A model generated the notes under the pieces. The model was given only the letters and a program-made list of their open reading frames with translations. It did not search any database and was not told the DNA's origin. DNA of 64,000 nt from Chiloscyllium plagiosum (Eukaryota): NCBI RefSeq assembly GCF_004010195.1, contig NC_057718.1, forward strand, positions 86,020,683 to 86,084,682, given 5' to 3'. Below are positions 5,870 to 41,255 of the stretch, piece after piece. Numbering within the stretch: position 1 is the first letter of the stretch; each line of letters begins with the position of its first letter. Both the position numbers and the translations under genes were made by a program.

Positions 5870-8640
5870 AAGACCATAAGACATAGGAGGATAAGTTAGG
5901 CCATTCAGCCCATCGAGTCAGCTCCTATTTTCAATCATGGCTGGAAAATTTCTCAACCCCATTCTCCAGCTTTCTCCCTGTAACCCTTGATCCCCTTGAT
6001 ACTTAAGAACCTATCTATCTCAGTCTTAAATATACCTGGCCTCCACAGCCTTCTATGGCAGTGAATTCCATAGATTTACCACTCTGTGACTGAAGAAGTT
6101 TCCCCTTATCTCCATTTAAAAGGTCTTCCCTGTACTCTTAGGCTGTGTCCTTAGGTCTTAGCTTCTCCTACCAATGGAAACATCTTCCCAGCATCTACTC
6201 TGTCCAGGCCATTCAGTATTCTGTAAGTTTCAATTAGGTCCCCTCTCATCCTTCTGAACTCCATCTCATATAGACCCAGAGTCCTCAAAGGTTCCTCAAA
6301 TGATAAGCTTTTTATTCCTGGGACCGTTCTTGTGAACCTTCTCTGAACATTCTCCAGGGCCAGTACATCCTTCCTCAGATATGGGACCCAAAGCTGCACA
6401 CAATACTCCAAATGTGGGTTGACCAGAGCCTTCTAGAGCCTCAGAAGTACATCCCTGCTTTTATATTTAGGTTCTCTCAAAATAAGTGCAATATTTGCAT
6501 TTGCTTTCCTAACTCAGCCTGCAAATTTACCTCAAGAGAATCCTGGAGATGAATTACCAAGTCTCTTTGCACTTCAGACTACTGAATTTTCTCTCCATTT
6601 AGAAAATAGCCCATGCCTCTATTCTTCCGACCAAAGTGTATCACCCTGTTGTACTCCATCTGCCACTTCTTTGCCCACTCTCCTAATCTGTCCAAATTCT
6701 CCTGCAGCCTCCCCACCTCCTCAATGCTGCCTGTCCCTCTACCTATCTTTGTATCATTTCAGTTCCTTCTTCTAGATTGTTAATGTACAAAGTGAAAAGT
6801 TGTGGTCCCAACACTGACCCTTGTGGAACATCACTTGTCACCATCTGCCATCCTGAGAAGGACTTTTTTATCCCCACTCTCTGTTTTCTGCCAGACAGCT
6901 AAGCTTTTATCCATGCTAGCACCTTCCCTCTACCATCATGGGCTCTTATCTTACTCAGTAGCCTCCTGTGCATCACCTTGTCAAAGACCTTCTTGAAGTC
7001 CAGACAGATAATGTCCATTAGTTTTCCTTGAACTAACCTGCTCATTACTTCCTCAAAGGATTCTCGCAGATTTGTCAGGCCTGAGCTCTGCCTGGATGAA
7101 ACCATATTGATTTTTCCCTACTTTACCGTGCATTTCCAAGTATTCAGCCATCTCATCCTTCACAATGGATTCCAGGAACTTACCCACAACTGAGTTTAGG
7201 CTAATCAGTCTGTAACATCTGTCTTTTGCCTGATTCCCTTTTAAACAGGGATGTCATGATAATTTTCCAGTCCTCTGGGAGCCTCTGTGATTCTCGTGAT
7301 TCCTGAATGATCACCACTGACACCTCCATTGTCTCTTCAGCTATCTCCGTTCACACTCTGGGGTGTCGTCCATCTAGTCCAGGTGATTTATTCACCTTCA
7401 GGCCATTCAGTTTTTCTAGCAACTTCTCCTTGGTGATGGCCATCATAGTCAGCTCTGCCCCCTCATTCTCTTGAATTTTTGGGATATTACTCATGTCTTC
7501 CACCATGATGATTGACATGAAGTAATTAGTCAGTTCCTCAGCCATTTCCTTGTTCCCCACTCCTATCTCTCCGGCATCATTTTCCAGTGATCTAATGTCC
7601 ACTTCTGCCTCTCTTTTGCCCTTTATATATCTAAAGAAACTCATACAATCTTCTTTTATATTACTGGCTAGTTTACCCTCATAGTTAATCTTCTCCTTCC
7701 GCGGTCCAACATCCACTTCTGCCTCTCTTTTGCACTTTATAAATTTATAGAAACTCTTACAGTCTTCCATTATAATATGGCCAGCTTACCCTCATAGTTA
7801 ATCTTCTCCTTCCTTATTTCTTTATTTGTCGCCCTCTATTGGTCTTTGTAAACTTCCCAATCCTCGGGTTTCCCACTGCCCTTCACCACATTATATACTT
7901 TCTCTTTTGCGTTGATGCTGTCCCTGACTCCCTGGTCAGCCAGGGTTACCTCATCCTCCCTGTACCTTGCTTCTTTTTCCTCAGGATGAATCTCTGTTGT
8001 GTCTCCTGAATTGCTCCCAGAAACCCCTGCCATTGCTGTTCTATAGTCTTTTCTGTTGGGCTCCTCTCTCAGTCAATTCCACCCAGCCCCTCCCTCATAC
8101 CTCTGTAGTTGCCTTTATTCAGCTATAATATCATTACCTCTGATTCTATCTTCTGCCTTTGCAATTGCAGGAGTAAATTCAATCATGTTATGATCACTGC
8201 CTCTGAAGGGTTCCATCACCTCAAGCTCCCTAATCAAGTCTGCCTCTTTGGTCAGCACTAATCCAATATTGCCTGTTCCCTGGTGGGCTCCACCACAAGG
8301 TGCTCACAAAAGCCATCTCATAGACATTCCACAAATGCCTTTCCTTCCAGTCCACTACCAACCTCATTTTCTCAGTCCACTTGCATATTGAAATCCCCCA
8401 TGATCACTGTAACTTTGCCTTTCCTACACATCGTTTCTATCTCTTGGTGTATCTTGCGCCCTAGCTCCTGATTACTGTTTGGCGGCCTGTACGTCACTCC
8501 AACTATGATATTTTTACCTTTGCGGTTCCTCAATTCTATCCACATGGATTCTCCACCATCTCACCCTAATTCATTTCTTACTATTGATTTAGTTTCATTT
8601 CTTACTAATAGGGTAACCCCACACCCTCTGCGCCTCCTTG
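5870..8640 (-). mobile_element. CR1-type LINE, endonuclease through RT to 3' tail
   Basis: ORFs 6151..6411 (EYCVQLWVP..ALENVQRRFTR), 6899..7105 (CLDFKKVFDKVMH) and 7351..7770; CATAAGAC-type tail near 5870. Confidence 0.9.
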
Positions 8641-8719: not shown

Positions 8720-9660
8720 ACAGCAAAAAACTAAAGATGCTGAAAATCTGAAACAAGCACAGAATGCTGGAGAGACTCAGCAGGTCCGGCAGCATCTGGG
8801 GAGAGAGAAACAGAGTTAACATTTCAAGTCTGGTATGACTCTTCAGAATTGAAGCCACAGAACCACGATGGTGTTGTTCCTCTGCTTTTCTTATTGGCTG
8901 TTGTCAGGGCCTCGAGCTGACTCAGCTGCTGCTTGCTCCAACAGATGACGGGCATTTTGACTTTACAAGCTTTGTCCAAAGTTAACGTTAGCAATGTCAG
9001 CAACTTACTGCGAATGCATTCGCTTTGTAAACTGCACACCAACCTGTCTAAAGTTCCAATGAATAGACAGCTTTTGCAAAGGTATTGTAAGCTCTCCAGT
9101 AAAAACAGAGTGCTGAAGAAACTCAGCCTGCCTGGGAACAACTGTGAAGAGAGAAAGCAATTTAATGTTTCACGTCTGATATCGCTCTTCTTCAGAATGG
9201 AAAGCAGCTGGAAAATGCTGACAGAAAGGGAGGAGAAGCGTGTAGAACAGATTGTATTTGTCTTTTACTCGGACATTAATACAGTGATAACAGTGGCAAA
9301 GGAGAGCTAGAGATGTTAAATAGGTGTTAATGTTCGCTGTGCAAAAGAGAAAATTGATCTGTTCTGCTAAAAGCAAAGCCATCACGACACAGCTGGGGAA
9401 TGTTGTGAGATGTAAGAACAATTAAGATCAAAGGTTTTGACATTGGGGAACTCTGTATGGGGTTCTTGAGAGTGTAATTTGCCTCTGTGGAAAGTGAGAC
9501 GTTGTTCCTCCAACTTGCAATGAGCTTCATTAGAACACAATAGCAGGCTAAGGACAGAAATGCTAGTGTGGGAGCAAGGTAGTTTACTGAAATGGCAAGC
9601 AACTGGAAGCTTGAGGTCATTTGTATGGACAGAGGGGAGATTCTCACCAATACACAAGAA
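8720..9660 (-). mobile_element. Old Penelope-like fragments (terminal region and GIY-YIG C-terminus)
   Basis: ORF 9382..9657 LPVACHF..HTSISVLSLL..HCKLEEQRLTF..EF matches the Penelope GIY-YIG end seen at 13273..13758 and 40422..40859. Terminal-region copies lie at about 8720-8850 and 9095-9200. Confidence 0.6.
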
Positions 9661-13050: not shown

Positions 13051-13154
13051 ATCCCATCCCATGCCCAATAATTCAGTTGCCTCTTGTTTTTTACGTGGAC
13101 AAAGGACTAATCTCAAGAGGTGATGGGAGAGTGACTAGTCTTGACATCAAACAG

Positions 13155-15140
13155 AAAATGAGGACTACAGATGCTGGAGATCAGAGTCAAAAAGTGTGGT
13201 GCTGGAGAAGCACAGCCCATTAGGAAGCATCCAAAGAGCAGGAGAGTCAATGTTTTGGGCATAAGCCCTTCATCAGGAATGTGGGGTGGGGTGGGGGGAT
13301 GCCCAAGGGGTCTGAAAGATAAATAGTAGGGCTGTAGGGGAAGGTCGCTGGGAAGGTGATAGGTGGATGCAGGTGCGGGGTGATGGGGATAGGTTGTGGT
13401 GGAAGTTGGACCGGACAGGTGGGAAGAAAAATGGACCAGTGGGAGTGCTGTGCCACCTCGAGGGTTGGTTCTGGGATAAGTTGGGGGGAGGGGATATGAG
13501 GAAACTGGTGAAATCTACATTGATCCCGTGTGGTTTGAGGGTCCCAGGGCAGAAGATGAGGCATTCTTCCTCCAGACATCGTGTGGTTAGGATTTGGCGG
13601 CGGAGGAGGCCCAGGACTTGCATGTCTTTGTGGAGTGTCAGGGGATGTTGAAGTGGTCGGCCACAGAGCGGTGGGTTGTTACATGCGTGTGTACCAGAGA
13701 TATTCTCTGAAACATTTCGTAAGTTGGCATCCTGTCTCCCCAGTGTAGAGGAGACCACGTCAGGAGTAACAGATAAAGTAGATCACGTGTTTGGATGTGC
13801 AGGAAAATGTTTCCCAGATGTGTAAGAACCCTTTAGGTCCTTGGACAAAGGTACAGAGAGAGGTGTGGGTGCAGGTTTTACATCTCTTGCACTGGAAAGA
13901 GAAGGTGCCGGGAGTGGAGGGTTGGTTGGTGGAGGGTGTGGACTAAATGAGGGCATCGTGGAGGGAATAGTCTCTGCAGATTGCTGAAAGGGGTGAGGAG
14001 GGAAATTTATCTCTGGAGGTGGGGTCTGACTGTAGGTGGTAGAAATGGTGGAGGATGATGTGTCGTATCTAGAAGTTGGTGGGGTGGAAGGTGAGGACCT
14101 GGAGGTGGGTGGGGGGTGTTCTACCCCTGTTGCAGTTGGAGGGGTGGGGTTCAAGGGCGGAGGTGCAGGAAGTGGAGAAGATGCGCTGGAGGGCATTGTT
14201 GAACACGCGGGAGGGGAAATTGCAGTCCTTGAAGTAGGAGACCATCTGGGATGTTCTGGAGGGGAATTGCTCTTCCTAGGAGGTGGAGGAATTGGGAGCA
14301 GGGGGTAGCTGCAGGTCGCTGTGGGAGTTGATGGGTTTGAAGTAGATGTCTGTGTTGAGTCAGTCACTGCAAATGGAGATGGAGAGGCCCAGGAAAGGGA
14401 GGGAGGTGTCCGAGATGGTCCAGATTAACTTGAGGTCAGGGTGGAAGGTATTCATGAGGTTGATGAACAGTTCAACTTCCTCGTGGGAGCACGAGGTAAC
14501 ACCGATACAGTCATCAATGTAACGGAGGAAAAAATGTGGAATAGTGCCTGTGTAAGTACAGAACATAGACTGTTCCACGTATCTGATGAAGCGGCGGGCA
14601 TGGCTGGGGCCCATGTGGGAACCCATGGCTACCCCTTGGCTCTGAAGGAAGTGGGAGGATTCGAAGGAGAAGTTGTTGAGGATAAGGACCAATTTCACCA
14701 ATCGAATGAATGTGTTGGTGGAGGGGGGGTGGTTGGGTCGACAGGAGATGAAGAAACGGAGGACTTGGAGGCCTTGGTCATGGCAGATGGGAGTGTCAAG
14801 GGAATGGATGTCTATGGTGAAGATGAGGCATTCAGGGCTGAGGTATCAAAAGTAATAGAGGAGGTGGAGGGCTTGAGTGGTCTCCTGAATATTTGTGGGG
14901 AGCTCCTGGACCAAGGAGTCAGGATGGTGTCAAGGTATGAGGAGATAAGTTCGGTGGGGCAGGAGTAGACGGAGATGATGGGTCTACCGGGGCAGTTAGG
15001 TTGGTGAATTTTGGGTAAGAAGTAGAACTGGGTGGTGCGGGGCTCCTGGACTATGAGGTTGGAGGCTATGGGTGGGAGATCCCCTGAGGTGATGAGATTG
15101 TGGATGGTTTGGGAGATGATAGTTTGGTGATGAGAGGTGA
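13155..15140 (-). mobile_element. Penelope-like retroelement (RT + GIY-YIG + terminal repeat), frameshifted
   Basis: ORFs 14812..15216 (FYFLPKIH..PGRPIIS), 14360..14701 (NNFSFES..QGVAMGSHMGP..FLRYIDDC..LPFL) and 13273..13758 (MQVLGL..RCLEEE.LIF..L.PHGINVDF); degenerate hammerhead motif at about 13248-13280. Confidence 0.9.
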
Positions 15141-15144
15141 AGTC

Positions 15145-17925: not shown

Positions 17926-18712
17926 GAAGTCTTTCTGTGTGTGGTCATGTGTGTGCGTGGTTATAATGTTGCAGACTTAGACCTGCACAAGATTACTAAG
18001 TCCACATTTGTAATGNNNNNNNNNNNNNNNNNNNNNNNNNNNNNNNNNNNNNNNNNNNNNNNNNNNNNNNNNNNNNNNNNNNNNNNNNNNNNNNNNNNNN
18101 NNNNNNNNNNNNNNNNNNNNNNNNNNNNNNNNNNNNNNNNNNNNNNNNNNNNNNNNNNNNNNNNNNNNNNNNNNNNNNNNNNNNNNNNNNNNNNNNNNNN
18201 NNNNNNNNNNNNNNNNNNNNNNNNNNNNNNNNNNNNNNNNNNNNNNNNNNNNNNNNNNNNNNNNNNNNNNNNNNNNNNNNNNNNNNNNNNNNNNNNNNNN
18301 NNNNNNNNNNNNNNNNNNNNNNNNNNNNNNNNNNNNNNNNNNNNNNNNNNNNNNNNNNNNNNNNNNNNNNNNNNNNNNNNNNNNNNNNNNNNNNNNNNNN
18401 NNNNNNNNNNNNNNNNNNNNNNNNNNNNNNNNNNNNNNNNNNNNNNNNNNNNNNNNNNNNNNNNNNNNNNNNNNNNNNNNNNNNNNNNNNNNNNNNNNNN
18501 NNNNNNNNNNNNNNNAGTGGGAATATTCCGGATAACTACAAACCAGTGAGCCTGACGCCGGTGGTGGGGAAGTTGTTGGAGAGGGTACTGAGGGATAGGA
18601 TCTAATTATATTTAGAAAAGAATGGGCTTATCAGTGATAGGCAACATGATTTTGTGTGGGAGAGATCGTGCCTTACAAACTTAATAGAGTTCTTCGAGGG
18701 GAAGTATCTTCT

Positions 18713-18934
18713 AGGAGAAAGTGAGGACTGCAGATGCTGGAGATCAGAGCTGAAAACGTGTTGCTGGAAAAGCACAGCAGGTCAGGCAGCATCCAAGGAG
18801 CAGGAGAATAAACGTTTCGGGCATGAGCCCTTCTTCAGGAATCCTGAAGAAGGGCTCATGCCCGAAACATCGATTCTCCTGCTCCTTGGATGCTGCCTGA
18901 TTTGCTGCGCTTTTCCAGCAACACATTTTCAGCT
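18713..18934. mobile_element. Palindromic Penelope-derived short insertion (family A) inside CR1
   Basis: 93-nt inverted arms 18748-18840 and 18842-18934 around centre 18841; each arm is the Penelope terminal sequence. Confidence 0.85.
18838..18877 (+). ncRNA. Minimal type I hammerhead ribozyme-like motif
   Basis: Stem I GGAAUC/GAUUCU; core CUGAAGA (18844-18850) plus A; stem II GGGC-UCAU-GCCC; GAAA; CAUC (ACGUC palindromic in sister copies). A mirror motif lies on the - strand. Confidence 0.65.
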
Positions 18935-20294
18935 TCATCGAGGAAGGAACCAAGTTGATAGATGAAGGAAGGGCTGCTGATGTCATATACATAGACTTTA
19001 GTAAGGTGTTTGATAAGGCTCCTCATTGTAGACTAATGGAGAAAGTGAAGTCACATGGTGTGCAGGGTGTTCTAGCTAGGTGGATAAAGAACTGGTTGAG
19101 CAACAGGAGACAGAGACTAGTAGTTGAAGGGAGTTTCTCCAAATGTCAAAAGGTGACCAGTGGTGTTCCACAGGGGTCAGTATTTAGGCCACTGTTGTTT
19201 GTAATATACGTAAATGATTCGGAAGAGGGCACTGTTGGTTCGATCAGCAAGTTTGCAGATGACACACAGATTGCTGGAGTAGCAGAAAGCATAAGGGACT
19301 GTCGCAGAATACAGGAGGATATAGATAGACTGGAGAGTTGGGTGGAAAAGTGGCAGATGGTTTTCAATCCAGGCAAATGTGAGGTGATGCATTTAGGCAA
19401 GACTAATTCTAGAGCGAATTATACAATGAATGGAAGAGCCTTGGGAAAAATGGATGGACAAAGAGATGTGGGAGTGCAGGTCCATTGTACCCTGAAGGTT
19501 GCTGCACAGGTGGATAGAGGGTCAAGAGGGCATATAGTATGCTTGCCTTCATTGGACGGGGTATTGAGATTTAGAGCTGGCAAGTCATGTAAAAATTGTA
19601 CAAGACATTGGTTCGGCCGCATTTGGCATACTGTGTACAGTTCTGGGCGCCACATTACCAAAAGGATGTGGATGCTTTGGAGAGAGTGCAGAGAGTCTGG
19701 TATGGAAGGTGCTAGCTATGAAGAGAGGTTGAGTAGGTTAGGTTTATTTTCACTATAAAAAATGAGATTGAGGGGGGACCTGATTGAGGTTTACAAAATC
19801 ATGAAGGGTATAGATAGGGTGGACAGAGACAAGTTTTTTCCCAGGGTGAAGGATTCAATATCGAGAGGTCACGCTTTCAAGGTGAGAGGTGGAAAGTTCA
19901 AGGGGGATACATGCGGCAAGTACTTCACACAGAGGGTGGTGGGCGTTTGGAACGCGTTGCCAGCAGAGGTGGCAGAGGCAGGCACGGTAGATTCATTTAA
20001 GATGCGTCTGGACAGATGTATGAGTAGATGGGGAGCAGAGGGATACAGGTGCTTAGGAATTGACCGACAGGTTTAGACAGTACATTTGGATCGGCTCAGG
20101 CTTGGAGGGCCGAAGGGCTTGTTCCTGGGCTGTAGATTTTCTTTGTTCTTTAGGTTCATAAACTTGAACCAGGGAACAATTTCTTACACAGTTACACAGC
20201 TCACCCGAGACTGACCCAAAGCTCCCGCTCAAGGTCACCTGACACATTCACTAAAATGGTCGGCAAGCAACTCCGATTACATACATAACATGCC

Positions 20295-21380
20295 CAACCC
20301 TCATCAATCATTTTCATCACTTCCTCAAATAAATTTAACCAAGTTTGTGAGGCAAGAATTCCTCTGCAGAAAGCCATGTTGACTATCCTTAACAAGCCCT
20401 TTCCTTTCCAAATGCAAGTAAATGCTGTCCCTAAAGAATCTTCTCCAATAATTTCCCTATCACTGATCTAAGGTTGACCAGCCTATAGTTTTTCAGAAGA
20501 TCCCTGTAGCGCCTTCTTAAATCAAGGAACAACATTGACTATTCTCCAGTCTCCTGGGACTTTGCCTGTATTTAAAGAGGACACAAAGGTCTCTGTCCAG
20601 GCCCCAGCAATCTCCTGCCTTGCCTCCCTCAGTAACATGGGATAAATCCCATCTGGTTCTGGGGACTTAGCTACCTTAATTTTTTTTCAAGACACTTCTT
20701 CCTCCTTAATATCGACATGTCCTGGTGTTTTTCTGCCAGTTCTTCCTTTTGTTCCTTAACAAGCCTGCACCAATTTCTGATCCTTTTATAGACCCACTAT
20801 TTATTGTCCATGTGCAGTGTCTATCCCTCTGTTTACCTCCTGTTCATGTTTCTATCTAGATATACCTTAAACATTGCTAATGTGTCTGATTCCTAAACCT
20901 CCACTGGCCATTCCAGGCACCCACCAGCCTCTGTGTGAAAACCTTTCACTGCATTTCTCTGGTAAACTTTCCTCCTCTCACTTTGGACCTGTGCTTATTT
21001 CGAGTTGACCTTTCCAACCTGAAAATAAAGCCTATTCTCTCATCATTATGAAGCCCTCTCTCAGGTCACCCCTCAGCTTCTGCCTTTCCAGTGAAAACCT
21101 TTCAAGTTTATCTAACTTCTCCTCATAACCAAAACCCTCCAGACCAGGCAACATCCTGGGAAGCCTTCTCTGCACCCTCTCCATAGCAACCATGTCCTTC
21201 TGATAACATGGCAACCAGAACTGCATCACAAGATTCCAAATGTGTCCGAACTAAAGCTGTACCATAACTTGCCAACTTTTATATTTGATGCTGCGGCCAA
21301 TGAAGACAAGCGTGCTGTATTCCTCCTTGACCACCTGATCCACCTGTATTGCTGCTTACAGGGATCTGTGGACCTGCACG
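20295..21380 (-). mobile_element. CR1-type LINE fragments
   Basis: ORFs 20201..20395 (NLFEEVMKMIDEG) and 21032..21229 (QFWLP..MERVQRR..YEEKL..LRGDL). Confidence 0.75.
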
Positions 21381-21914
21381 TGACTTTCTATAACTTGGTT
21401 GGTTCCCTCTCAGGCAGGTCTCACTGAGATTAAAAATGTAATAGACTCATTGTGCTCACACACTGGGCTGTGCGTAACCTCTCCCTGACAGCTCTGCAGA
21501 CTGACTTCACCTTAACTCCCTGCTCCTTACGTGATTGCTGTTAGACCTGGTGTCTTTTTCTGAGCAAAATACTCTCTGTTTGTAGATTCAAAAGACATGT
21601 ACATGGGTTCACATAATCTTTAAAAAAGTGATGTTTGGGTTAGATCTCATTATAAAAATGTCATAGAGTCATAGAGAATGGAAACAGACCCTTCAGCCCA
21701 GCTTATTCATGCAAACCATGCACAATGGCTGGGTTATTACCGGTGAAAAGCCTCTGACTCTCACCAGCCTCTTACCTGGTCTCTAAAAACCTCCAGCTGA
21801 ACTCTAGACTGACAGCCAATGGCTTTCCAGTCCTGGGACTGTTCAACTGTGGAACCTCCCGCTCCATTGGAGTCAGGATTATCATCTTGGCCACCACTCC
21901 CCTGTCCTCACTGC

Positions 21915-22795
21915 CCATAGAGTCATAGAGTCATACAGCATGGAAACAGACCCTTCGGTCCAACTCATCCATGCTGACCAAGCATCCAAACATAAACTAG
22001 TCCCATTTGTCTGCAGCTGTTCCATATCCCTCTAAACCTTTCCCATTTCCGTATCTGTCCAAATATTTTTTTAAAGGAGTAGCTGTACCCGCATCCACCA
22101 ATTCCTTGGGCAGTTTGTTCCACATTTGAACCACACTGTATGAAAACATTGCCCCTCAGGTATCTCTCAAATCTTTCTCCTTGCATCTTAAACCTATGCC
22201 CTCTAGTTTTGAATTCCCCAACCCGAGGGAAAAGCCTTGCTGTTCACCTTTTCCATGCCCCTCACAATTTCATAAACTCCAATTGGGTCTCTCCTCAACC
22301 TCCTTCTGCTCCAGTGAAATAAGTCCCAGCTTATGCAGCCTCTTCTTATAACTTAAACCCTCCAGTCCCGAGAAGATCCTTATAAATGTTTACTGTACCC
22401 TCTCCACCTGAATAACATTCTTCCTACAGCAGGGCAACTTGAACAGTCCACATTACTTCAAGAATGGTCTCACCAATGTCCTAGACAACTACAACATGAC
22501 AGCCCAATTCCTTTGCATAACGGTCTGAGCAATGAAGACAAGTGTGCCAAGAGCCTTCTTTACCCCTCTGTCTACCTGTGACACAACTTTCAAAGAACTA
22601 CATACCTGAACCCCGAGGTCTCTCTGTTCTACACCAATCCCCAGGGCCCCACCATTCACTGTGTAAGTCCAGCTCTTGTCTGCCTTCCCAAAATGCAACA
22701 CCTTCCACTTATCTAAATTAAAGTTGATCTGCCGTTCCTTGTTCCACTGCCAGGTTGATCAAGTTCTGTTGTGCTCTTGGATAACCTGCTTCACT
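21915..22795 (-). mobile_element. CR1-type LINE 3' portion
   Basis: (CATAGAGT)n tail; ORF 22489..22701 (LHFGKA..EQRDLGVQV..SLKV). Confidence 0.8.
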
Positions 22796-25974: not shown

Positions 25975-27876
25975 GGGTTGGAGGGTTTGAGCTGTAGACA
26001 GAGGCTGAATATGCTGGAGCTGTTTTCCCTGGAGCATTGGAGTCTGAGGGATGACCTTATAGAGGTTTATAAAATCATGAGGGGTATGGATAGGGTGAAT
26101 AGTCAAAGTCTTTTCTCCAGGGTAGGACAGTCCAAATCGAGAGGGCATAGGTTTAAGGTGTGAGGGGAAAGTTTTTAACGGGACCGAAGAGGCAGCTTTT
26201 TCATGCAGAGGGTGACGCATGTATGGAGTGAGCTGCCAGAGGAAGTAATGGAAGTTGTTACAATTACAACATTTAGCGGACACTTGGATGGATGCATGAA
26301 TAGGAAGAGTTTGGAAGGATGTGGGCCAAAGGCTGGGAAATAGAAATAAATGGAATTCCTCTCCATCCAAGTCCTGAACACTATGGCAGTCCCAGCTATG
26401 GTTGGAAAGTTAAAATCCCCTACCATTACCATCCTATTATTCCTACAGATAACTGAGGTCTCCTTACAAAATGGTTTCTCAATTTCCCGCTGACTATTGA
26501 GGAGTCTATAATACAATCCCAATAAGGTGATCATCCCTTTCTTATTTCTCAGTTCCACCCACATAACTTCTCTGAACATATTCCCAGGAATATCCTCCCT
26601 CAATACAACCGTGATGTTCTCCCTAATGAAAAACACCTCCTCCTCTTTTACCTGCCTTTCTTCTCTTCCTACAGCATCTCTACTCTGGAACATTAAGCTG
26701 CCTGTCTTGTCCTTCCTTAAGCCACATCTCTGTAATCATTATGAGCACATGGAGTACAGGGAGAGCTAGCCATTTAGGTATAAAATTGGCTCAAAGGTAG
26801 GAGACAGATGGGAGCCATGTGACCAGTGGTGTGCCACTAGAATCAGTGCTGGGTCCACCAGTTTTATCATTTATATAAAAGATTTTGGATGTGTACATTG
26901 GAAAAATGGTTAGTAAATTTGCAGATGACACCAAAATTGTTGGTGGACAGGGCAGAGGAGAGGTTTATCTCAGAGTAAAACAGGGCATTGATCAGTTGGG
27001 CCAATGGGCTGAAAGGTAGCAGGTGTAGTTTAATTTAGATTAATGTAAAGTGCTGCATTTTGGTAGGGCAAGTCAGGGCAGGACTTATACACTTAATGGA
27101 AAGCTCTTGGGTTGTGTTGCTGAGCAACGAGACCTATGGATGCGTTCCAGCAATAAAGTTTCAACTTTGATCTCCAGCATCTGCAGACCTCACTTTCTCC
27201 TCGAGGACTTATACACTTAATGGAAAGCTCTTGGGTTGTGTTGCTGAGCAACGAGACCTATGGATGCAAGTTCATAGTTCCTTGAAGGTGGAGTCACAGT
27301 AGACAGGGTAGTGAAGAAAGCAAATGGTACGCTTACCCTTATTGGTCAGTGCGTTGAGTGTAGGAGTTGGGATGTCATGTTGCAGCTGTGCAGGACATTG
27401 GTTTGGTCATGTTTCGAATACTGTAATCAATTCTGGTCTCCCTGCTATGGGAAAGATACTTGAGCTATAGTGAAAGTCAGGATTGGCTGAAGCTATTTTC
27501 TCTGCATTGTCAAAGGCTGAGGAGTGACCTTATAGAGGTTTGTAACATCATGAGGAGCATGGATAGAATGAAAAGCCAGCGTCTTATTCCTAGGCTTAGG
27601 GAGTCCAAAACTAGAGGGCATAGGTTTTAGGTGAGGGGAGGAAAATTTAAAAGGCACCGAAAGGGCAACATTTTCATGTGGTCAGTATATAAAAAGAGCA
27701 GCCAGAGGAAATGGTGGAGGCTGATACAATCACAACATTTAAAAGGCATATGAACTGGTACATGAATAGGAAGAGTTTAGAGGGAGATGATTGGAATAAT
27801 TTAGAATACCTGGTCGGCATGGATGAGTTAGACCAAAGGGTCTATTTCCACATGTACGTCTTTATGACTCTATGAC
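25975..27876. mobile_element. Mosaic of CR1 pieces (+ 25975-26345; - endonuclease 26345-26735; + RT-to-tail 26745-27876)
   Basis: ORF 26175..26693 (WVELRNKKG..LGLYYR..VGDFNFP); KFADDTK at about 26915; TATGACTC tail at about 27862-27876. Confidence 0.8.
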
Positions 27877-27879
27877 CTC

Positions 27880-30800
27880 ACTAGCTCTACCTACCAACTT
27901 TGTTTGGATCAACAATACCCACATGGTCATGAGCCTTTTCATTTGTTTAGCCACTTTCTGAAATGAAATGATCATTACATCCAATTGTCTCAGACACATT
28001 GCAGACAACATAAATGTTGAAATGTTGTGACACCAACACCAAATTCAAGGGTTCATTCTCAATTGTGGAATATCTCTGTTGATAAGGACTCAATTTTCTG
28101 GAAAAAAATGCCCATTAGGTCCGTCTATGTTCTCGTTGTCTTCTTGTAGCACCAACACCCACATCATTCGTATTGATAGCCATCTTGAATGACTTTGTGT
28201 AATTAGTTGTGGCTAACACTGGGGCAGTGGTTACTGCAGCTTTCAAGCTGTCAAATGTCTTCTGACAGTTCACTATCCACTGAGATTTTCTGCACCTCTT
28301 GAGTAAGTCAGTCAGTGGAGCAACCACACTGTGAAAATCCAGTACTGATGTGGAGGTGGCAGTGCTGGACTGGGGTAGACAAAGTTAAAAATCACACATC
28401 AGCAGGTTATAGTACAACAGGTTTATTTGGAAGCACTCGTTTTTGGAGCACTGCTCTTTTGACAGATAACTAGAAGGAGCAGCGCTCCAAAAGCTAGTAC
28501 TTCTAAATAATCCTGTTGAGCAAAATCCAGGACAAACTTCAGATAAAACCACTCAATTTCAGGAATTGTAGTACTGCCCTTTTCATCAATGGTTTGGGAA
28601 CATCCCCAATAACCTTAGTTTTCACATCCCATGTGGCCATCTATTCATGTCTTTTAACATGTTCCAGGAACATGACTTGGGCTTTTGCAAACTCAATCTT
28701 TGCTGAGTTCATCACCAAGCTTGCCTCCTGAAGTCGATTGAGCAATTCCAGTAAATGCTGCAAATGTTCCTTCCATGTCTGACTAAAAGTCATCAGGTTG
28801 TCAATGTATACCACACAATGAGATAATCCTGAATAGACTTTGAAATGTGACTGGTACATTTTTCATAACAAATGGCATGACTTTAAATTAGTACAGAATC
28901 GAAAAGTGTGTTCACGAAATCTGAAATGGTTTTCAGTCTTTCAGATTAAGGTACCTGCCATTATCCTTTAAGTAAGTCCAACTTAGAAATGTAATTTGTT
29001 TGTCCCACCATCTCAATGCATTCTTCCAAATGTTGAATAGGATATGAATCAGATTTTGTAACTGCATTGACTTTGCAATAGACCAGATAATCTTTGGGTT
29101 CTGTCTGGTTTTGGCACCATTACTATGGGTGAACTCCATTCACTGCAACTCACTTTGATTATGTTGTCTTTGAACATGTATTCAATCTTTTTTTGAACCT
29201 GTGCCAATTTTAGTGGATTAAGTCTATAAGGATATTGCTTAATTGGAACAGTATTTCCTTCAACTGCATTATGCGTAATTAGATTATTACTTTCCAGCTT
29301 ATTCCCACATATCTCTCCATGCAATGAGGTTAAATCTTTAAGTTCCTTTTGATTTTCCTCTGGAAGGTAACTCAGTAATTTATCCCAAGTTTTGAGAACT
29401 TCCTCATTGTCCAATTTAATTTGAAGAATGTTCAATTTAGAATCCTCTGAACCAGTAACACATTCTCCTTTTGCTTTCCTTCCTTATCAAAACACCTTCT
29501 GAGCATATTTACATGACACACTTTGTGAGACTTCTTTCTATCTGATGTTCTTATCAAATAATTCACCTCACTCAATCTCCCTTTGATTAAATATATCCAC
29601 TAAACCTTGCTTTTAATGGTTCACCTATCACTGGAAGTAACACTTGCACTTTATCTCCACAAGTAAAATTGTGAATTTGTGATTTCTTGTCTGTTTCCTG
29701 TTTCATCATATATTGTACTACTTTCAAAGTCTGGACAACTCACCCGCCTGAATATGTGATGGTCTCCATTTCCTGATCAAGGCGTTATTTTTAAGTTAAC
29801 AACATTCTGGAATAAACTCAGATTCTTCTTCTGTATATGTTTTTTGATACAAGTGCTTCAGTTTCTCATCATTCTGTTGTAAGTCAGCTAATTTCCCTGA
29901 AATAAAAATATCCATTTTCTCCTCCACCTGCGCTTGTTTCTTTTCTCAACCATTCAATCAGTCATGGTCTCGGATAATTGTATTTCAACTCCCTGGTCTT
30001 TATTCTTTGATTTTTCCTCCTGCTTCAACCCGTGGCTTTGTGACCTTGTTACCACACAGTCAGGATGTACTTCCTGTCAAACATCAGTTGTCTGATTTTC
30101 CACTGGCTTTTCCACCACAGTAGACAGCACTTCTACCTGTGAACCTGCTATGTCATTTCCAAGGATAAATTGTATTCCTGGAGCGGGGAATTTCTCCATT
30201 ACCCGCCACCCCCCACCACGTCTCTACTTTTAAATACTCCAATTTCACTTTACATAATGGAGCACTTCTTGTCTCACCATGAATTCCACATGTTACCACT
30301 TTTTCTATCATCAGTCCTTCCGAATTACACATCTCCTCATCTCTCAATATCAAAATGAATCTCTTGTTTCTATCTCTCTTATCCCTTAATATTGTAATGT
30401 GTTTCCCTGCTCATCCTGAGCACATGAGTAAACCTTACTCTCAGAAGTAAATGTTGTAAGAAGACCTGGTATTTACTTCTGAACCAGCCCCTGACCAGGT
30501 TGTACATTCTGCTGCAGCTTTTTAGCTTCCACTGTGCTTCCTTAATCATTTCAACAAAACTCACTGGCTTCTCCTGTTTTCCGACATCTGTCTTCCCAGC
30601 GATTTTTCTAAACCATCAACGCGGTGACTTCATGTGGCCCATCTCATTACAGTGAAAACACCTGAGCTTTTTCTCACCTCTCTTTCCCCCCTCAGGGGTT
30701 TCCTGTTTACCCTGTGGTGAATTATCTTTACTATCTCTTTCCTCAATTTCTATCACTCACAGATTGAAATTGATGCTGGATGCTACACATTGATTTATGA

Positions 30801-32630: not shown

Positions 32631-33899
32631 GTTTTCGAGACCAGTACAGCAAGTGTTTTACTACCCAGCACCTGGGGGACAAGGAGAGGATCAGTTGATC
32701 AAACAATCTTGTTGATCAAGAAGTTCATACAACCAATATAAAAACACATTCAGTAATAGAAACATAATACAGGGGGGGGGGTACACATCTCTGTTATCCT
32801 TAATTTGCTGCAAAAATCAGTTTGATAATAATGTAATGTTGCCTTAAATAAAGCTTACTGACAGCGAGCCTTCTCACTCTCACTCTCAGGCATTGCAGAG
32901 ATTACAGGGATATTTCTGGTATTTCAGGGATATACTTGTTACTGGTTTATTGAGAGTTCCAGTTCACATGGTGCTGGTTAAACCAAAGTTTGCTGTGCAC
33001 AAAACAATATTTATACGTTTTGATATTTATAAAGACACGCATTGTCAGAGCTGACTCTATTGTGGATTATATTCAAGACAAAAAATGTGGAGATTTGGTT
33101 CAGTTTAAGGTGGATTAGAGATTGTTAGCTTTGAATTTGTTCCATGATGCCTCATATGGATTCTACCAAAAACATAGTCCGTTGAGCTTAAGCAAAGGAC
33201 TCAGTAAATGCAGATTTGCAAGCAGAAAATGCAAGGACTAGTAAAATAGGTGAGGCCTATTAGCTCTGTAAAGAGAGGAGAAATTTAGATTCAGAAGACT
33301 TGCCAAGGAAATGTCTGTGTGCGTCACATGGGTGGTGATGTGTGACTGTCAATGATACCGATAATCTGCCATTCATTTTACTCCTCTTTGGATAACAACA
33401 TTCACACAAACTGGACACTGTTGTCACATGGTGCGGGTGTAAGATCGATGTAGTGTGGTGCTCCACAGCAACATGTCCGCTCCCTTGGCTGATGATGGTT
33501 GGAAACCACGACAAACTGTCTGGCTTTGTGTCTGCACCAAAGTGAAGACATGACAGAAATATTGTGAGCCTTTAAGCTTTAGTTGGGGGGAAAGAATGAG
33601 AAAGGCCAGGCAAGGCATGGGAGAGACGCTTAGTGTAGAGAGCACTAAGAAAGTGAGCAAGGAGCCCTGAGATGGACCTGGCCCAATTGTTCTCCTTCAA
33701 TCTTCCAGTGTAGGTGAAGATTGTATTGTGTAATATCTGTTAAAATTAACTGTACCTGTTTGTTCAAACACCGCAAACTGATTTCACTGTCTCTGCATCT
33801 GCACAAAATCACAGGGGAGATTTAGTTGCTTTATATAACGGATGAATGTCTGATCATTCAGATCTGTCAACAACAATTGATATCGCCCTCTCTCTGAAA

Positions 33900-33969
33900 A
33901 TGGAATTACCAACAATTGAACAGATAGCTTTCACTTACTACCATTTCCTCACAATCTTCGGAGTTCCTG
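33900..33969 (+). CDS. GPR139/GPR142-like GPCR, coding exon 1 (copy a)
   Basis: ATG..MELPTIEQIAFTYYHFLTIFGVP+G, then donor GTAAGA at 33970. Phase 1 joins exon 2 to give FGVP-ANFLTIV, comparable to GPR139 LGLP-ANILTV. Confidence 0.85.
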
Positions 33970-34129
33970 GTAAGAAGCTGAAGCAGGTTGTGTTATCTTT
34001 TCAATCCCACTTTCACTCTGTTCTTTCCCCTGATATATCTCTCAGTGTATAAACCCTCCCTCTTTCTCTCCTCATGTTGGATCCAGTTTCAGGTGTTCCT
34101 ACAAGAAACAGGTCATGCTGTAAATTGTG

Positions 34130-36230
34130 AATTTTACTTCAGTTCCATGAGGACATGAGGAATCTGTGACCTGACGTGTGCTAAATGGTCCTTGTCTGGG
34201 AGGAACAGGTACTTTCAGATTTCTGGATCCCAAAGCTCTCTCCGACTGGGTTTTTATTGCCATGTGTCTGGGTCTGTTGCTGGGACATGGGCCTGGATTT
34301 GATATTGGTCAGTGGGATCAGGCAGGTTGATGGGATAGTACCTGGTCCACATGCTCACACACCTGAACGATCTTCACAGTGGAATCAAGAGCTGGTCACC
34401 CAAGTCACATGGTGCCAGGGCCCTCCTCAGTGAAGCACACGGTGAGGGCGGGTGTCCACTGGGAGAAGGGTCAGGCTGTGAACAGCAAGTCAGCTCCAGC
34501 CATCATTGTACAGGGTTGTGGGGATGAGCAGGCAGCTGAGGGGGAGTGGGATTGTTTAAATATCCTTCAGCTGTGGGGAGGCAGCATTGAGAGTTCTGAA
34601 CCTTTATTGTTGAGGGGAGCAGGTTAGACTGTGAACTTGTCTCCTGTGACAGGGCCATCTTTCACAAACCCCTTTGCCAAGGTGGAGATATCATCCACCC
34701 CATCCAGGGCAGGATCCAAAGCCACTGTGTCTCAGTTATCGGGCAAAGTTGGCAGAGGTGGGCAGTAGATGTTGGCGTGGCTGGTCAATGTGGTTGATGT
34801 ACTGCAAGAGGCTGAGTGAGAGAACAGGGATTAGTGGAGATGTGGCCAAATTGACTCGATGTGGGAGAACACGGGGAATAATTTACGATGTCTTTACAGG
34901 AATGGTATGGCTGATAACCTTCATTAAATACATGCACATGAGGATGGATGTGTAGTTATTGCTATTGTTCATTTGGCTGGTCTGATGAATGGATGTTGAC
35001 TTGAGAGTTTACTCACCAGAGCTTGTTGATAGTGTGTATCCCAGCATCCTTTTCAGTGCCTGCCCTATCTTTGCCATATACACAATGGTCCTGTCACTGG
35101 AGGTGACATTGTGGAGTTGAGCAGGATGTTAATCCTTTTGACAGATCACCTTGGTGTTTGTGTGAATCTTATTGCTATGCCACTCAACATCTGATCTCAT
35201 GTGTTGCATTGGGATCATGAGCCATCACTTCAATAGACAGCCCTTCCCTCCCAGAATCTATCTCTCCAATGGCTGTGGTACATTGCCCACTATGGAACCG
35301 AGGGCTGTTGAAGTTTGTATGATGCATGATTCCCAAGAAGGGCTTATGCCCGAAACGTCGATTCTCCTGTTCCCTGGATGCTGCCTGACCTGCTGCGCTT
35401 TTCCAGAAACACATTTCCAGCTCTGATCTCCAGCATCTGCAGACCTCACTTTCTCCTCCCTGGAATAGACACACGTACCTGGAGAAGCCTTTGTCGATAA
35501 TTGCTGACTAATTGGACACTCTGGGAGTTTGTCCCTTTAATATTTACAAATGCCCCTGGTTGTCTCACTGAAGCCTCAACAACAACATGCTTGTAATCAA
35601 TGACACCTTCCAGTTTTGAGAATCCAGCAAGATTCCTGAATCCTGTGGCCATCTTCCTGCCTGGTGAACGTTATCTGTGGTGAAAGTGATGTTGTTGCCA
35701 ATGTTCTCCCTTTCATACCGTGTTGTACAGGAGCTTACAGCCCACTGTAAACATCTCAATCTAATGCTTACAAAGAGCTGGAGGCACAAAGGCTCAGTGC
35801 CACGGGTGATCATTAAAACTCAGAACTCTGAATCCCCAGTCACACTGATGTGTCACAAAGAGACATCACTGACACCCTGGAGAGACACACTCTGTGCAGA
35901 CACTGGGGCTCCAGATGCTGCAGATAGTTTGCCCTCTGTCTGTAAATGCAAGGCACTGATTGTACATTCTCCTTTCAGGCTGCTGTTATTCTCAATGGTT
36001 TCCTTACACAGGACTAGGTCCATTATGTCCCTGTTATACAGAGCCCATCTACCCCTGGCTATCTGCCCTCTTGAACCTTCTGGTCTTGACCTCCTCCCAC
36101 TTTTACAACCCTCATGGGGACAGCTGCCTCTGAGCTCCTGTCTGAGTCTCAAAACTAACAACAGCCCTGTCCCGAGCCCTCAAGCCTTCTCTCTCCTCTG
36201 GTATGTTTCTTATTGTGCTGAATATTCCAC
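34130..36230 (-). mobile_element. PIF/Harbinger DNA transposon relic (HARBI1-like DDE transposase), intronic
   Basis: QRANYLQ..QCLHRVCLSR; LAGFSKLEGVIDYKHV..PGAFVNIKGTNSQSVQLV..PG (ORF 35446..35652); ILGGKGCLLK*WLMIP (compare LLGDxGYPLxxWLMTP). Confidence 0.8.
35334..35456 (+). mobile_element. Family A Penelope-derived short insertion, present only in duplication unit 1
   Basis: AAGAAGGGCTTATGCCCGAAACGTCGATT..CTCACTTTCTCC; empty site GATTCC|TCCCTGG at about 37990 in unit 2. Confidence 0.9.
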
Positions 36231-36547
36231 CTTCATGCAGAAAGTCACCAAATACATCCAACCACTCCACCTGCAAATGTTTTGATGGATTTTTATCTGT
36301 TTCAGTGTCTCTAACATAACACTGCTGGAAAATCCTTTGCCTGCGTAACTTCTGAATCCCATAAAATTGTGGTCAATTGTGCTCACATTGAGTTTCGGTG
36401 TATTTCAGTTCGTCAATGTTCAAAGGGGGCAGCCCCTCGCAATCCCACCCACCCTTCTGTTTAATTATAGACTGGCATAAGGCAATGTGATGGGGGGGTA
36501 CATTCACTCAATCCATCTCTACAATTGATATCGCCCTCTCTCTGAAA

Positions 36548-36617
36548 ATGGAATTACCAACAATTGAACAGATAGCTTTCACTTACTACCATTTCCTCAC
36601 AATCTTTGGAGTTCCTG
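36548..36617 (+). CDS. GPR139/GPR142-like GPCR, coding exon 1 (duplicate copy b)
   Basis: Same peptide as copy a with one synonymous TTC/TTT change; donor GTAAGA at 36618. Confidence 0.8.
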
Positions 36618-36779
36618 GTAAGAAGCTGAAGCAGGTTGTGTTATCTTTTCAATCCCACTTTGGCTCTGTTCTTTCCCCTGATATATCTCTCAGTGTATAA
36701 ACTCTCCCTCTTTCTCTCCTCATGCTGGATCCAGTTTCAGGTGTTCCTACAAGAAACAGGTCATGCTGTAAATTGTGAA

Positions 36780-38760
36780 TTTTACTCTAGTTCCATGAGG
36801 ACATGAGGAATCTGTGACCTGACGTGTGCTAAATGGTCCTTGTCTGGGAGGAACAGGTACTTTCAGATTTCTGGATCCCAAAGCTCTCTCCGACTGGGTT
36901 TTTATTGCCATGTGTCTGGGTCTGTTGCTGGGACATGGGCCTGGATTTGATGTTGGTCAGTGGGATCGGGCAGGTCGATGGGATAGTGCCCGGTCCATGT
37001 GCTCACACACCCGAACGATCTTCACAGTGGGACCAAGAGCTGGTCACCCAAGTCACATGGTGCCAGGGGCCTCCTCAGTGCAGCACATGGTGAGGGCGGG
37101 TGTTCCCTGGGAGAAGGGTCAGGCTGTGAACAGCAAGTCAGCTCTAGCCGTCATTGTACAGGGCTGTGGGGATGAGCAGGCAGCTGAGGGGAAATGGGAT
37201 TGTGTAAATCTCCTTCAGCTGTGGGGAGGCAGCATTGAGAGTTCCGAACCATTATTGTTGAGGGAGCAGGTTAGACCGTGAATTTGTCTCCTGTGACAGG
37301 GCCATCTTTCACAAACCCCTTTGCCAAGGTGGAGATATCATCCACCCCGTCCAGGGGAGGATCCAAAGCCACTGTGTCTCAGTTATCGGGCAGAGTTGGC
37401 AGAGGTGGGCACTAGATGTCGGCGTGGCTGGTCAATGTGGTTGATGTGCTGCAAGAGGCTGAGTGAGAGAACGGGGACTAGTGGAGATGTGGCCAAACTG
37501 ACTCAATGTGGGAGAACACGGGGAATAATTTACGATGTCTTTACAGGAATGGTATTGCTGATAACCTTCATTAAATACATCCACATGAGGATGGATGTGT
37601 AGGTATTGCTGTCGTTCATTTGGCTGGTCTTATGGATGGATGACGACTTGAGGGTTTACTCACTAGGGTTTGTTGATAGTGTGTATCCCAGCATCCTTTT
37701 CAGTGCCTGCCTTATCTTTGCCATATACACAATGGTCCTGTTATTGGTCAGAGCTTGAGGTGACATTGTGGAGTTGAACAGGATGTTAATCCTTTTGACA
37801 GATCACCTTGGTGTTTGTATGAATCTTATTGCAACGTCACTCAACATCTGATCTCATGTGTCGCATTGGGATCATGAGCCATCTCTTCAATAGACAGCCC
37901 TTCCCTTCCAGAATCTATCTCTCCAATGGCTGTGGTACATTGCCCACTATGGAACCGAGGCCTGTTGAAGGTTGTGTGATGCATGATTCCTCCCTGGAAT
38001 ACGCACCCATACCTGGAGAAGCCTTTGTCGATAATTGCTGACTAATTGGACACTCTGGGAGTTTGTCCCTTTAATATTTACAAATGCCCCTGGTTGTCTC
38101 ACTGAAACCTCAACAACAACATACTTGTAATCGATGACATCTTCCAGTTTTGAGAATCCAGCAAGATTCCTGAATCCTGTGGCCATCTTCCTGCCTGGTG
38201 AACGTTATCTGTGGTGAAAGTGATGTTGTTGCCAATGTTCTCCCCTTCATACAGTGTTGTACAGGAGCTTGCAGCCCACTGTAAACATCTCAATCTAATG
38301 CTTACAAAGAGCTAGAGGCACAAAGTCTCAGTGCCACAGGTGATCATTAAAACTCAGAACTCTGAATACCCAGTCACACTGATGTGTCACAAAGAGACAT
38401 CACTGACTCTCTGGAGAGACACACTCTGTGCAGACACTGGGACTCCAGATGCTGCAGATAGTTTGCCCTCTGTCTGGAAACGCAAGGCACTGATTGTACA
38501 TTCTCTTTCAGGCTGCTGTTATTCTCAATGGTTTCCTTACACAGGACTAGGTCCATTATGTCCCTGTTATACAGAGCCCATCTACCCGTGGCTATCTGCC
38601 CTCTTGAACCTTCTGGTCTTGACCTCCTCCCACTTTTACAACCCTCATGGGGACAGCTGCCTCTGAGCTCCTGTCTGAGTCTCAAAACTAACAACAGCCC
38701 TGTCCCGAGCCCTCAAGCCTTCTCTCTCCTCTGGTATGTTTCTTATTGTGCTGAATATTC
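36780..38760 (-). mobile_element. PIF/Harbinger relic, duplicated copy
   Basis: ORFs 37947..38186 (GFSKLEDVIDYKYV..NIKG..PGRNHAS) and 38374..38694. Confidence 0.8.
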
Positions 38761-39326
38761 CACCTTCATGCAGAAAGTCACCAAATACATCCAACCACTC
38801 CACCTGCAAATGTTTTGATGGATTTTTATCTGTTTCAGTGTCTCTAACATAACACTGCTGGAAAATCCTTTGCCTGCGTAACTTCTGAATCCCATAAAAT
38901 TGTGGTCAATTGTGCTCACATTGAGTTTCGGTGTATTTCAGTTCGTCAATGTTCAAAGGGGGCAGCCCCTCGCAATCCCACCCACCCTTCTGTTTAATTA
39001 TAGACTGGCATAAGGCAATGTGATGGGGGGGTACATTCACTCAATCCATCTCTGTAAAGGGTTTCTAGTTTGAGAAAGATTTTGCTTCCTTCCAATCTGT
39101 GCAATATTTCTACACATTTGTGAGGTTGCCTGATGGGAAATCTCAGTAAATAGACAAGGCTGAAAGAAATAATATCTCAATATTGTAACACAAAATTGGT
39201 GGGAGGAAACACGTGTGCAGTGTAAACCTCAGCGTAGACCTATTGGACCAAATGGCCTGGTTTTGTGTCATGATCTTTTATCAATGCTGTGTTATTAATC
39301 TGGAGATTCTGCTCTTTTCTCTGTAG

Positions 39327-40279
39327 CTAACTTCCTGACAATTGTCCTTCTAACTCGTGGAGGCTGTGGTCTATCCAAAGGGATCTCTCTTTATTTGGTG
39401 GGTATGACGACAGTTGATCTCCTGGTCATTATTTCCAATGTGATAATCTACTACATGCTTTACTACTATTTCCCATTTTCATTTCTACACTTCACCTCAA
39501 TAAGGAGCATCAATGTGGTGATCAACTACACAGCTGTTGACTGCTCTGTTTGGCTCACGGTCGCTTTCACTGTCGATCGTTTTGTCCTCATTTGTTGCCA
39601 GAGATTGAGAGCAAAGTATTGCAGGGAGGAAACTGCAGCTGTGGTTATAGTGACTGTGTGTGTTGTGTTCTCACTCAAAAATATTCCCTTGTATTTTGCT
39701 GTTGGGCCAATCTATATAATTAACAATGTGGAATGGGGTGCTTATTTCAAGCCAGACTACTTTATCTTACCAGGATGGATCAGTTTTGACTGGCTTGACA
39801 CAATTTTAAACCCATTATTGCCATATTTTCTCATTTTATTGCTCAATGCACTAACTGTTCGACACATTGTGATAGCGAATCGAACCCGCAGAGCACTGCA
39901 AGGTCAACGCAACACCCAGAACAGCGACGATCCAGAGATGCAGAGCCGAAGGAAATCCATCACGTTACTGCTCACCATTTCTGGCACTTTCATCGTGCTG
40001 TGGATGCCATATACTATGTTTTTCCTGATTTCTAGATTTACAGATACATTTTATGAGCCAGATCATTATACTGATCCCTTAGTAATCGCAGACTACACGG
40101 GAGATATGTTTCAACTGCTGAGTTCCTGTACAAACACATGCGTTTATGCATTGGCTCAGTCTAAATTCAGAAAAAAATTGATAAATGCCGTTATATATCC
40201 ATTTCTTGCACTTAAGAACTGTGTCAATTTTTTAAAAAACATGCTGACTGGAAACAAAATTGCAAAGCTTTCATATTAA
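39327..40279 (+). CDS. GPR139/GPR142-like class A GPCR, coding exon 2 (TM1 C-half to C-terminus); spliced product about 340 aa
   Basis: Acceptor CTCTTTTCTCTGTAG|CT at 39326/39327. Open frame with TM1 AN, TM2 VDLL, TM3 SVWLTVAFTVDRF, TM4 NIP, TM5 PLLP..LLNAL, TM6 RKSITLL..FIVLWMP and TM7 NTCVY plus helix 8 SKFR; stop TAA at 40277-40279. Confidence 0.92.
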
Positions 40280-41190: not shown

Positions 41191-41255
41191 TCTCCAAGTC
41201 AGTGAATCTAGATTGTATGATGATGTCTCAGACTGTGTACAATTTAACTGCTACA

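Follow-up and report, generated by a model that had tools for sequence, protein, structure and literature searches.

A palindrome in the Chiloscyllium plagiosum genome that very probably consists of two head-to-head, hammerhead-bearing ends of a Penelope-like element

Insertions of Penelope-like elements (PLEs) show a characteristic architecture. According to the portion of Craig 2021 (PMC8557442) available to us, an inverted 5'-truncated copy lies adjacent to the element, and a tail of 30-40 bp is often present at one end only. Head-to-head palindromic junctions with target duplications were presented by Arkhipova 2013 (PMC3846280), in the sections at hand, and interpreted as self-priming. 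For a lizard PLE, the accessible text of Frangieh 2024 (PMC11167929) reports that the protein cuts and extends both strands in vitro, that two internal reverse transcription (RT) start sites bound the tail, that uncut RNA is the main template and that hammerhead cleavage needs the protein. In the available part of their paper, Cervera and De la Pena 2014 (PMC4209133) found no cleavage of a single minimal PLE hammerhead and low cleavage of dimers, and described motif pairs on opposite strands, about 100-700 bp apart, in metazoan PLEs. As to what the PLE hammerhead does in vivo, the consulted passages of PMC7761336 and PMC8557442 call its role unknown. For sharks, no description of PLE palindromes or hammerheads, and none of a transcription-start or twin-priming reading of such palindromes, was found in a literature search whose scope lay outside subscription journals, Repbase and supplements.

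The window analyzed here is a stretch of 64,000 nucleotides of the shark Chiloscyllium plagiosum (contig NC_057718.1, positions 86,020,683 to 86,084,682), and all coordinates refer to it. It contains an inverted unit of 222 bases (18713-18934). We are confident that this palindrome represents two head-to-head, hammerhead-bearing 3' ends (pseudo-LTRs, pLTRs) of an abundant, likely Neptune-type PLE, which likely arrived by one insertion into an old LINE and are now likely inert. The palindrome is thus a PLE relic of an already described kind and not a separate element. Its features are as follows.

18516-19758, plus strand: remnant of a LINE reverse-transcriptase gene, interrupted by the insertion (Pfam RVT_1, flank translations)
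18690-18706, plus strand: left copy of the target-site duplication, with a 10-bp core at 18690-18699, about 15 bp with a 2-nt G slip
18707-18712, no strand: filler of 6 nt separating the duplication from the end of the element; the family's 3' end maps to 18712-18714
18713-18747, minus strand: PLE "tail" of 35 nt, on the left arm only and unpaired (comparison with the copies in the window)
18748-18842, minus strand: left arm, a 5'-truncated pLTR end that starts at ATTCC directly before the hammerhead core
18804-18842, minus strand: minimal hammerhead with core 18838-18832 and stem II 18830-18819
18841, no strand: symmetry centre (A), where both hammerheads have their 5' edge
18838-18877, plus strand: minimal hammerhead with stem I 18838-18843/18872-18877, core 18844-18850, stem II 18852-18863 and GAAA 18864-18867; ACAU instead of ACGU; position 17 is C18871
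18842-18934, plus strand: right arm, a tail-less inverted copy of the pLTR end (self-comparison of the window)
18934-18948, plus strand: right copy of the target-site duplication, its first T shared with the element end

The 93-nt inverted arms around a 1-nt centre that a preliminary description of this DNA had stated are confirmed: 18748-18840 and 18842-18934 are identical at 86 of 93 positions around the single nucleotide A18841. Four of the seven differences fall on CpG sites; three are private to the plus arm and four to the minus arm. The two arms have three letters in common versus the three other hammerhead-bearing copies of the same family (here called family A) in the window; the left arm is 90-92% identical to other family A copies. 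The shared letters together with the arm-private differences fit a single event followed by neutral decay. The 35-nt tail recurs in the copies at 35335, 44503, 41075, 27145, 13151 and 110; it is missing, at the homologous boundary, from the plus arm and from the copy at 62010. The same boundary also divides a tailed copy (110) from a tail-less one (62010) in a sister subfamily.

The interrupted LINE, which we take to be CR1-like, is recognizable by a Pfam RVT_1 match of E 3.4e-18 for 18901-19758. A 10-bp repeat with one mismatch, found at 18690 and again at 18934, reaches about 15 bp in degenerate form and encloses the whole unit. Compared with uninterrupted paralogs at about 51805-51885 and 7040-7110, the LINE frame is duplicated across the insertion: the left flank translates as ...NLIEFFEGK and the right one as IEEGTKLIDEG, while ...NLIEFLEKVTKMIDES is found in the uninterrupted paralog near 51840. 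The PLE explanation has to accept a degenerate target duplication and leaves six nucleotides (18707-18712) unaccounted for.

The connection to an autonomous element is provided by a second locus in the window. The left arm matches 13153-13280 with 84% identity over 129 nt, and this segment is the 3' end of an element encoding RT and a GIY-YIG endonuclease. This match and the published insertion signature bear out the earlier proposal of a PLE link with minimal dimer-type hammerheads and inverted termini. The element and the single family A copies in the window are listed below.

13151-15144, minus strand: decayed, 5'-truncated PLE of a sister subfamily with RT (YIDD), CxxCxxC linker, GIY-YIG remnant and a hammerhead-plus-tail 3' end
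35330-35458, plus strand: family A single copy, tailed, with its start in the hammerhead core; the tandem duplicate near 37990 has the site empty
44503-44627, minus strand: family A single copy, tailed, starting in the core; perfect 11-bp target duplication
41075-41193, minus strand: family A single copy, tailed, starting at stem II; tail-to-tail with an older PLE end at 40953-41072
27145-27203, plus strand: family A stub of some 60 nt that lacks the hammerhead and lies within a perfect 64-bp duplication

Pieces of the element at 13151-15144 match RVT_1 (Pfam). With the RT piece as query, 18 proteins were obtained from 181 candidates; their identity reached 72%, and those with a name came mostly from sharks or rays. 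The homologs P0001-P0004 and P0006 match the element, and tblastn with P0003 and P0004 covers its positions 14815-13361. Of four homologs scanned, two also match GIY-YIG, one slightly over the curated cut-off, the other slightly under it. The linker preceding the endonuclease remnant reads CKRCKTC (CxxCxxC); in P0003 and P0004 it has the form C-X4-C-X2-C. In the part of Craig 2021 (PMC8557442) at our disposal, a CX2-5CxxC linker between RT and endonuclease is assigned to the Neptune and Nematis clades, and the accessible text of bioRxiv 10.64898/2026.07.22.740005 names Neptune and Poseidon as widespread vertebrate PLE groups. Because of this linker type and of the groups widespread in vertebrates, the parent PLE is likely of the Neptune type. 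The window holds no intact parent of family A, and the autonomous link is the sister subfamily. A reading frame starting with MLPDLL is open through the tail in all three translated family A arms and is shifted in two sister subfamilies.

The surroundings of these copies revealed further details. A tandem duplication of about 2.5-2.65 kb (33873-38804) contains both a filled and an empty site for the copy at 35330-35458; this copy was therefore either inserted after the duplication had taken place or removed from one of its units. The stub at 27145-27203 is surrounded by a perfect 64-bp duplication of LINE sequence (27080-27267), far longer than usual target duplications. At 40535-41193, an older PLE end, comprising a C-terminal GIY-YIG piece (40535-40826) and a pLTR end (40953-41072), is broken off in its tail, where a family A copy adjoins it tail-to-tail. 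Joints between opposite strands, in which tail ends meet tail-less ends, were encountered in the sequencing runs described below in up to 28 contigs per row among the matches listed; they may reflect insertion into the element's own ends.

The palindrome has the hallmarks of an insertion unit of endonuclease-positive PLEs as far as these are set out in the sources cited above: head-to-head inverted pLTR ends, a palindromic junction, a one-sided tail of 35 nt, a target duplication and a hammerhead in the pLTR. The pLTR end is that of an RT plus GIY-YIG element (by way of the sister subfamily), the inverted copy is truncated, the tail stands at one end, and the target duplication, present here, is optional in the literature. 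What separates the locus from the published units, within the same parts of those sources, is that the palindrome is reduced to a minimum, without an ORF or a direct pLTR pair, and that its centre coincides with the 5' edge of the hammerhead.

Both strands contain the core CUGAAGA-A-GGGC(UCAU)GCCC-GAAA, beginning at 18844 (plus) and 18838 (minus), in agreement with the preliminary description. They possess the CUGANGA and GAAA core, the extra base before stem II and the pair G10.1-C11.1. These traits, and the ACGU of the family majority, are shared with the minimal hammerhead of metazoan PLEs in the available text of PMC4209133. According to the same text the differences are a stem II of 4 bp, compared to 7-8 bp in Schistosoma families, mutations near the cut site in the local copies, and the spacing of the two motifs, which in the palindrome are just a few bases apart. 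A descriptor of the minimal hammerhead found four sites in the window, two of them the palindrome motifs, versus a mean of 0.07 and a maximum of one in 100 order-1 Markov simulations. Rfam covariance models, which had been suggested as a check, gave no match at gathering score in the window, and the 17 matches that 18600-19050 yielded up to E 10 included no hammerhead; these weak matches were hairpin-shaped miRNA-type models only, far below their own thresholds.

Both motifs have decayed, though at different positions. In the plus motif, G16.2 is replaced by A at 18869, which breaks the dimer palindrome (ACAU); the palindromic 15.2-16.2 pair is present on the minus arm and in the family majority. 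The minus motif keeps ACGU and has the cut-site triplet GUU (U at 17), and its stem I is broken since U at 1.1 faces C. A helix I of 4-5 bp is accordingly missing on the minus arm, and on the plus arm it depends on where the RNA starts. The sequence of the plus-strand stem I GGAAUC/GAUUCU, said to be supplied by the junction, is present, and position 17 falls on C18871, which confirms the predicted cut after 18871 as a matter of numbering. This 6-bp stem is presumably a by-product of inverting ATTCCTG, which is similar to the sequence just after the cut site.

Folding predictions favoured a different structure. The segment 18700-18945, taken as RNA, yielded -178.9 kcal/mol (z -21), and none of 200 shuffled sequences folded as well. 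The dsRNA hairpin of about 90 bp postulated before is thus retained as a predicted hairpin of 93 bp, on condition that the locus is transcribed. For the whole transcript, the computed pairing probability was about 1e-29 for the junction-made stem I and about 1e-16 for stem II, and forcing the hammerhead fold in a read-through RNA would cost 41.5 kcal/mol versus the 93-bp hairpin. The isolated plus motif folds as originally drawn (-14.6 kcal/mol), and 15 of 200 shuffles were as good. The plus stem I was predicted only for an RNA starting at 18836 or later (P 0.87-0.98), with 0.19 from 18834 and 0.000 from 18832. By these models the junction stem I is outcompeted by the long hairpin, and the self-cleaving transcripts that had been envisaged find no support, as both motifs have lost cut-site bases and stem I would hardly ever form in the whole transcript. 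Probably, both hammerheads are inert in their present place, and it appears that they were carried along as passengers of the PLE insertion.

For family-wide evidence, the contig sets X1, X6 and X12 (organisms A, B and C) and the RNA run X21, four of 24 listed runs, were compared to 18560-18862 at 85% likeness; the records numbered 102048, 80775, 88968 and 3616, respectively, and counts were taken from the best-supported rows. Loose ends with unrelated flanks peaked at 18712-18714, with at least 2820, 2977 and 2662 contigs in X1, X6 and X12. A second peak lay before 18758 (at least 1327, 1311 and 1162 contigs, and at least 640 RNA reads). Its last ten letters resemble the sister subfamilies at a consensus agreement of just 0.39-0.46, and we take this peak, from its letters, to mark ends near 18748 that lack the tail. 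At 18810 and 18811 the family majority deviates from the minus arm (89% and 81% of X1 depth); it reads GAAACGUC-GAU, which is an intact minimal motif including the ACGU palindrome. X21 contains 349 reads, where the depth is 545, that lead from 18842 into an upstream sequence common to them (agreement 0.54, among the matches listed), and hence the family is not a closed unit of 128 nt.

Past the centre, the mirror arm was reached at reduced depth: relative to 18841, and as rough shares because contig depth is not copy number, 11.6%, 8.9% and 9.0% remained at 18846-18856 in X1, X6 and X12, and 3.5%, 2.1% and 1.2% at 18857-18862. In X21 the corresponding values were about 3% and about 1%. A variant with an even centre and one extra T was detected in at least 17, 12 and 5 contigs (X1, X6, X12). 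Joints from 18840 to 18713 and from 18842 to 18712, leading back 128-131 bases, were seen in 2-9 contigs per run among the matches listed, the intervening sequence being mostly missing from the data; they may be direct tandems of a short unit, resembling retrozyme dimers. The whole of 18560-18862 was spanned by none of the contigs listed. X21, a poly(A) single-cell library of which about 2 in 100 of the run were covered and therefore a weak test, showed no pile-up of RNA starts or ends and a depth of fewer than two reads across the left junction (18692-18702). For 18516-22500 no RNA record was listed, which has no bearing on whether the locus is expressed. As regards A-to-I editing, changes from A to G occur in the DNA runs too, and thousands of paralogs matched at 85% likeness.

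Within the window, self-comparison detected four inverted repeats with short spacers, one tail-to-tail (40978-41180) and three head-to-head hammerhead pairs. Besides the palindrome under study, the latter comprise 42392-42560 and 28415-28518, which belong to a second, sequence-unrelated hammerhead family with a GGAGC/GCTCC stem II and AGCU in place of ACGU. They have decayed to 78% and 77% self-match, respectively, and are centred at the 5' edge of the core; a single motif of this family is located at 23544 on the plus strand. The second family, too, is likely composed of PLE ends.

The window contains further traces of PLEs and of other sequences. Between two copies of CCCATTG, an old insertion (55519-55620) consists of an inverted hammerhead piece on the minus strand, ending just before the cut site, which is joined without overlap to a forward 3'-end piece and resembles the 5' inversions of twin priming. 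PLE ends that are older and divergent, whose stem II differs and whose cut site is of the GUU type, lie on the minus strand at 8750-8850 and 9090-9200, adjoined by a weak C-terminal GIY-YIG match at 9436-9651. Single-exon frames of rhodopsin-family GPCRs (7tm_1) in inverted duplicated blocks occupy 39299-40279 (plus), 53798-54712 (minus) and 60013-60807 (minus); one, with 326 aa between stops, looks intact, and another is divided between two frames. A 27-bp minisatellite forms a run of head-to-tail copies at 298-562.

How could two PLE ends have been joined head to head? In the mechanism that we propose, the PLE protein would nick both target strands and then prime two cDNAs from two internal start sites, one of 128 nt with the tail and one of 93 nt without it. 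Both cDNAs would stop where the uncut hammerhead has its 5' edge, no more than a few bases apart, and their ends would be joined via 1-2 bases of microhomology. Two cDNAs are favoured by the symmetry, which continues down to the 1-nt centre, and by the precision of the tail-less boundary. If the PLE origin is accepted, the chances of such both-strand priming are about even, while those of a fold-back are rather below that, so that on an overall view fold-back is somewhat unlikely. In a fold-back, the first cDNA or an antisense RNA of the same PLE would have primed itself, been copied to the tail boundary and been resolved by the endonuclease. This agrees with Arkhipova 2013 (PMC3846280), who in the sections at hand reads palindromic junctions as self-priming and not as two cDNAs, and with Craig 2021 (PMC8557442), where the available text puts the tail down to endonuclease resolution. 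The common end position of both arms and their three shared letters versus the other three copies are also what a fold-back would leave. However, it requires a loop of at least three bases, yet the symmetry reaches the 1-nt centre, and since the upstream sequence in the RNA loose ends does not supply the loop, non-templated bases would be needed. Moreover, the same tail-less boundary occurs in the single, non-palindromic copy at 62010.

Other origins are improbable to varying degrees. That the palindrome is an independent, non-autonomous retrozyme-like unit which is transcribed, cleaves itself and moves as a whole, as had been suggested before, seems to us quite improbable and is not supported by the data. 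Like the non-LTR retrozymes of metazoans in the accessible parts of PMC7761336 and Li et al. (bioRxiv 10.64898/2026.07.22.740005), it is non-coding, related to the pLTR and equipped with a type I hammerhead; near-identical centres recur, the depth past 18841 would also fit whole palindromes moving as units, and the back joints of 128-131 bases (2-9 contigs per run among the matches listed) are in line with this idea. By contrast, the retrozymes of these two sources are direct tandem repeats with at least two complete hammerheads and circular RNA, whereas the palindrome is an inverted pair of decayed motifs. The available text of 10.64898/2026.07.22.740005 asks for two or more consecutive direct repeats each with a complete hammerhead; at this locus only the inverted pair was found and no direct tandem. 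In addition, variants of the centre exist, the 349 RNA reads enter common upstream sequence, both mutated hammerheads are predicted to be buried in the full-length RNA, and X21, within its limits as a weak test (about 2 in 100 of a poly(A) single-cell run), revealed no pile-up of starts or ends. Two independent insertions landing back to back by chance are very improbable. PLE ends do cluster, as seen from the tail-to-tail pair of different subfamilies at 40953-41193 and from the opposite-strand tail joints in the runs, but a single duplication flanks both arms, the three diagnostic letters are shared and the starts lie within two bases. We give hardly any credence to an artefact of assembly or library, i.e. 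a chimeric inverted read. It might be suspected from the N gaps of the assembly, one of which ends at 18515, and from the lack of a listed contig spanning 18560-18862; against it stand the seven of 93 arm differences, mostly decay of the CpG type, the flanking duplication in the register of the LINE, and the same geometry in other contigs and in the second family of the window.

Under the favoured PLE origin, the position of the centre deserves attention. In all three head-to-head PLE palindromes of the window, which represent two unrelated families, the centre lies within about 10 bases of the 5' edge of the core, and of the four other family A copies, three begin no more than about 15 bases from it, the fourth being shorter. 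This coincidence hints at a defined end of the template. Cleavage was considered as the cause of these 5' ends and rejected: a cut after position 17 would remove the core, yet the copies keep it, and so cleavage cannot explain them. It is conceivable, though rather doubtful, that the PLE transcript has its 5' end at the centre; with an initiator-like start located four bases ahead of the core, and with internal priming 93 or 128 bases downstream on both target strands, strong-stop stubs and head-to-head palindromes would arise in large numbers. In addition to the positions just mentioned, the recurrence of the centre in organisms A, B and C speaks for this idea. On the other hand, the initiator YYANWYY was found in just three of six copies extending upstream (background 1.1% per position, the copies being homologous and pyrimidine-rich), X21 as far as covered (about 2 in 100 of this poly(A) single-cell run) showed no pile-up of RNA starts, and a pause of the RT at a structure would give the same pattern.

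If the centre does mark the transcript start, the shark genome would record both the start of PLE transcription and the priming on both strands in vivo, with an uncut hammerhead at the very 5' end of the template. Stubs of this kind, as a class, are natural end-products of a PLE transposition cycle that is still incompletely worked out. Junction positions collected genome-wide could separate both-strand priming from fold-back and show whether it is at the hammerhead's 5' edge that the template begins. Finally, many such palindromes could, if read through and folded as predicted, feed dsRNA pathways.
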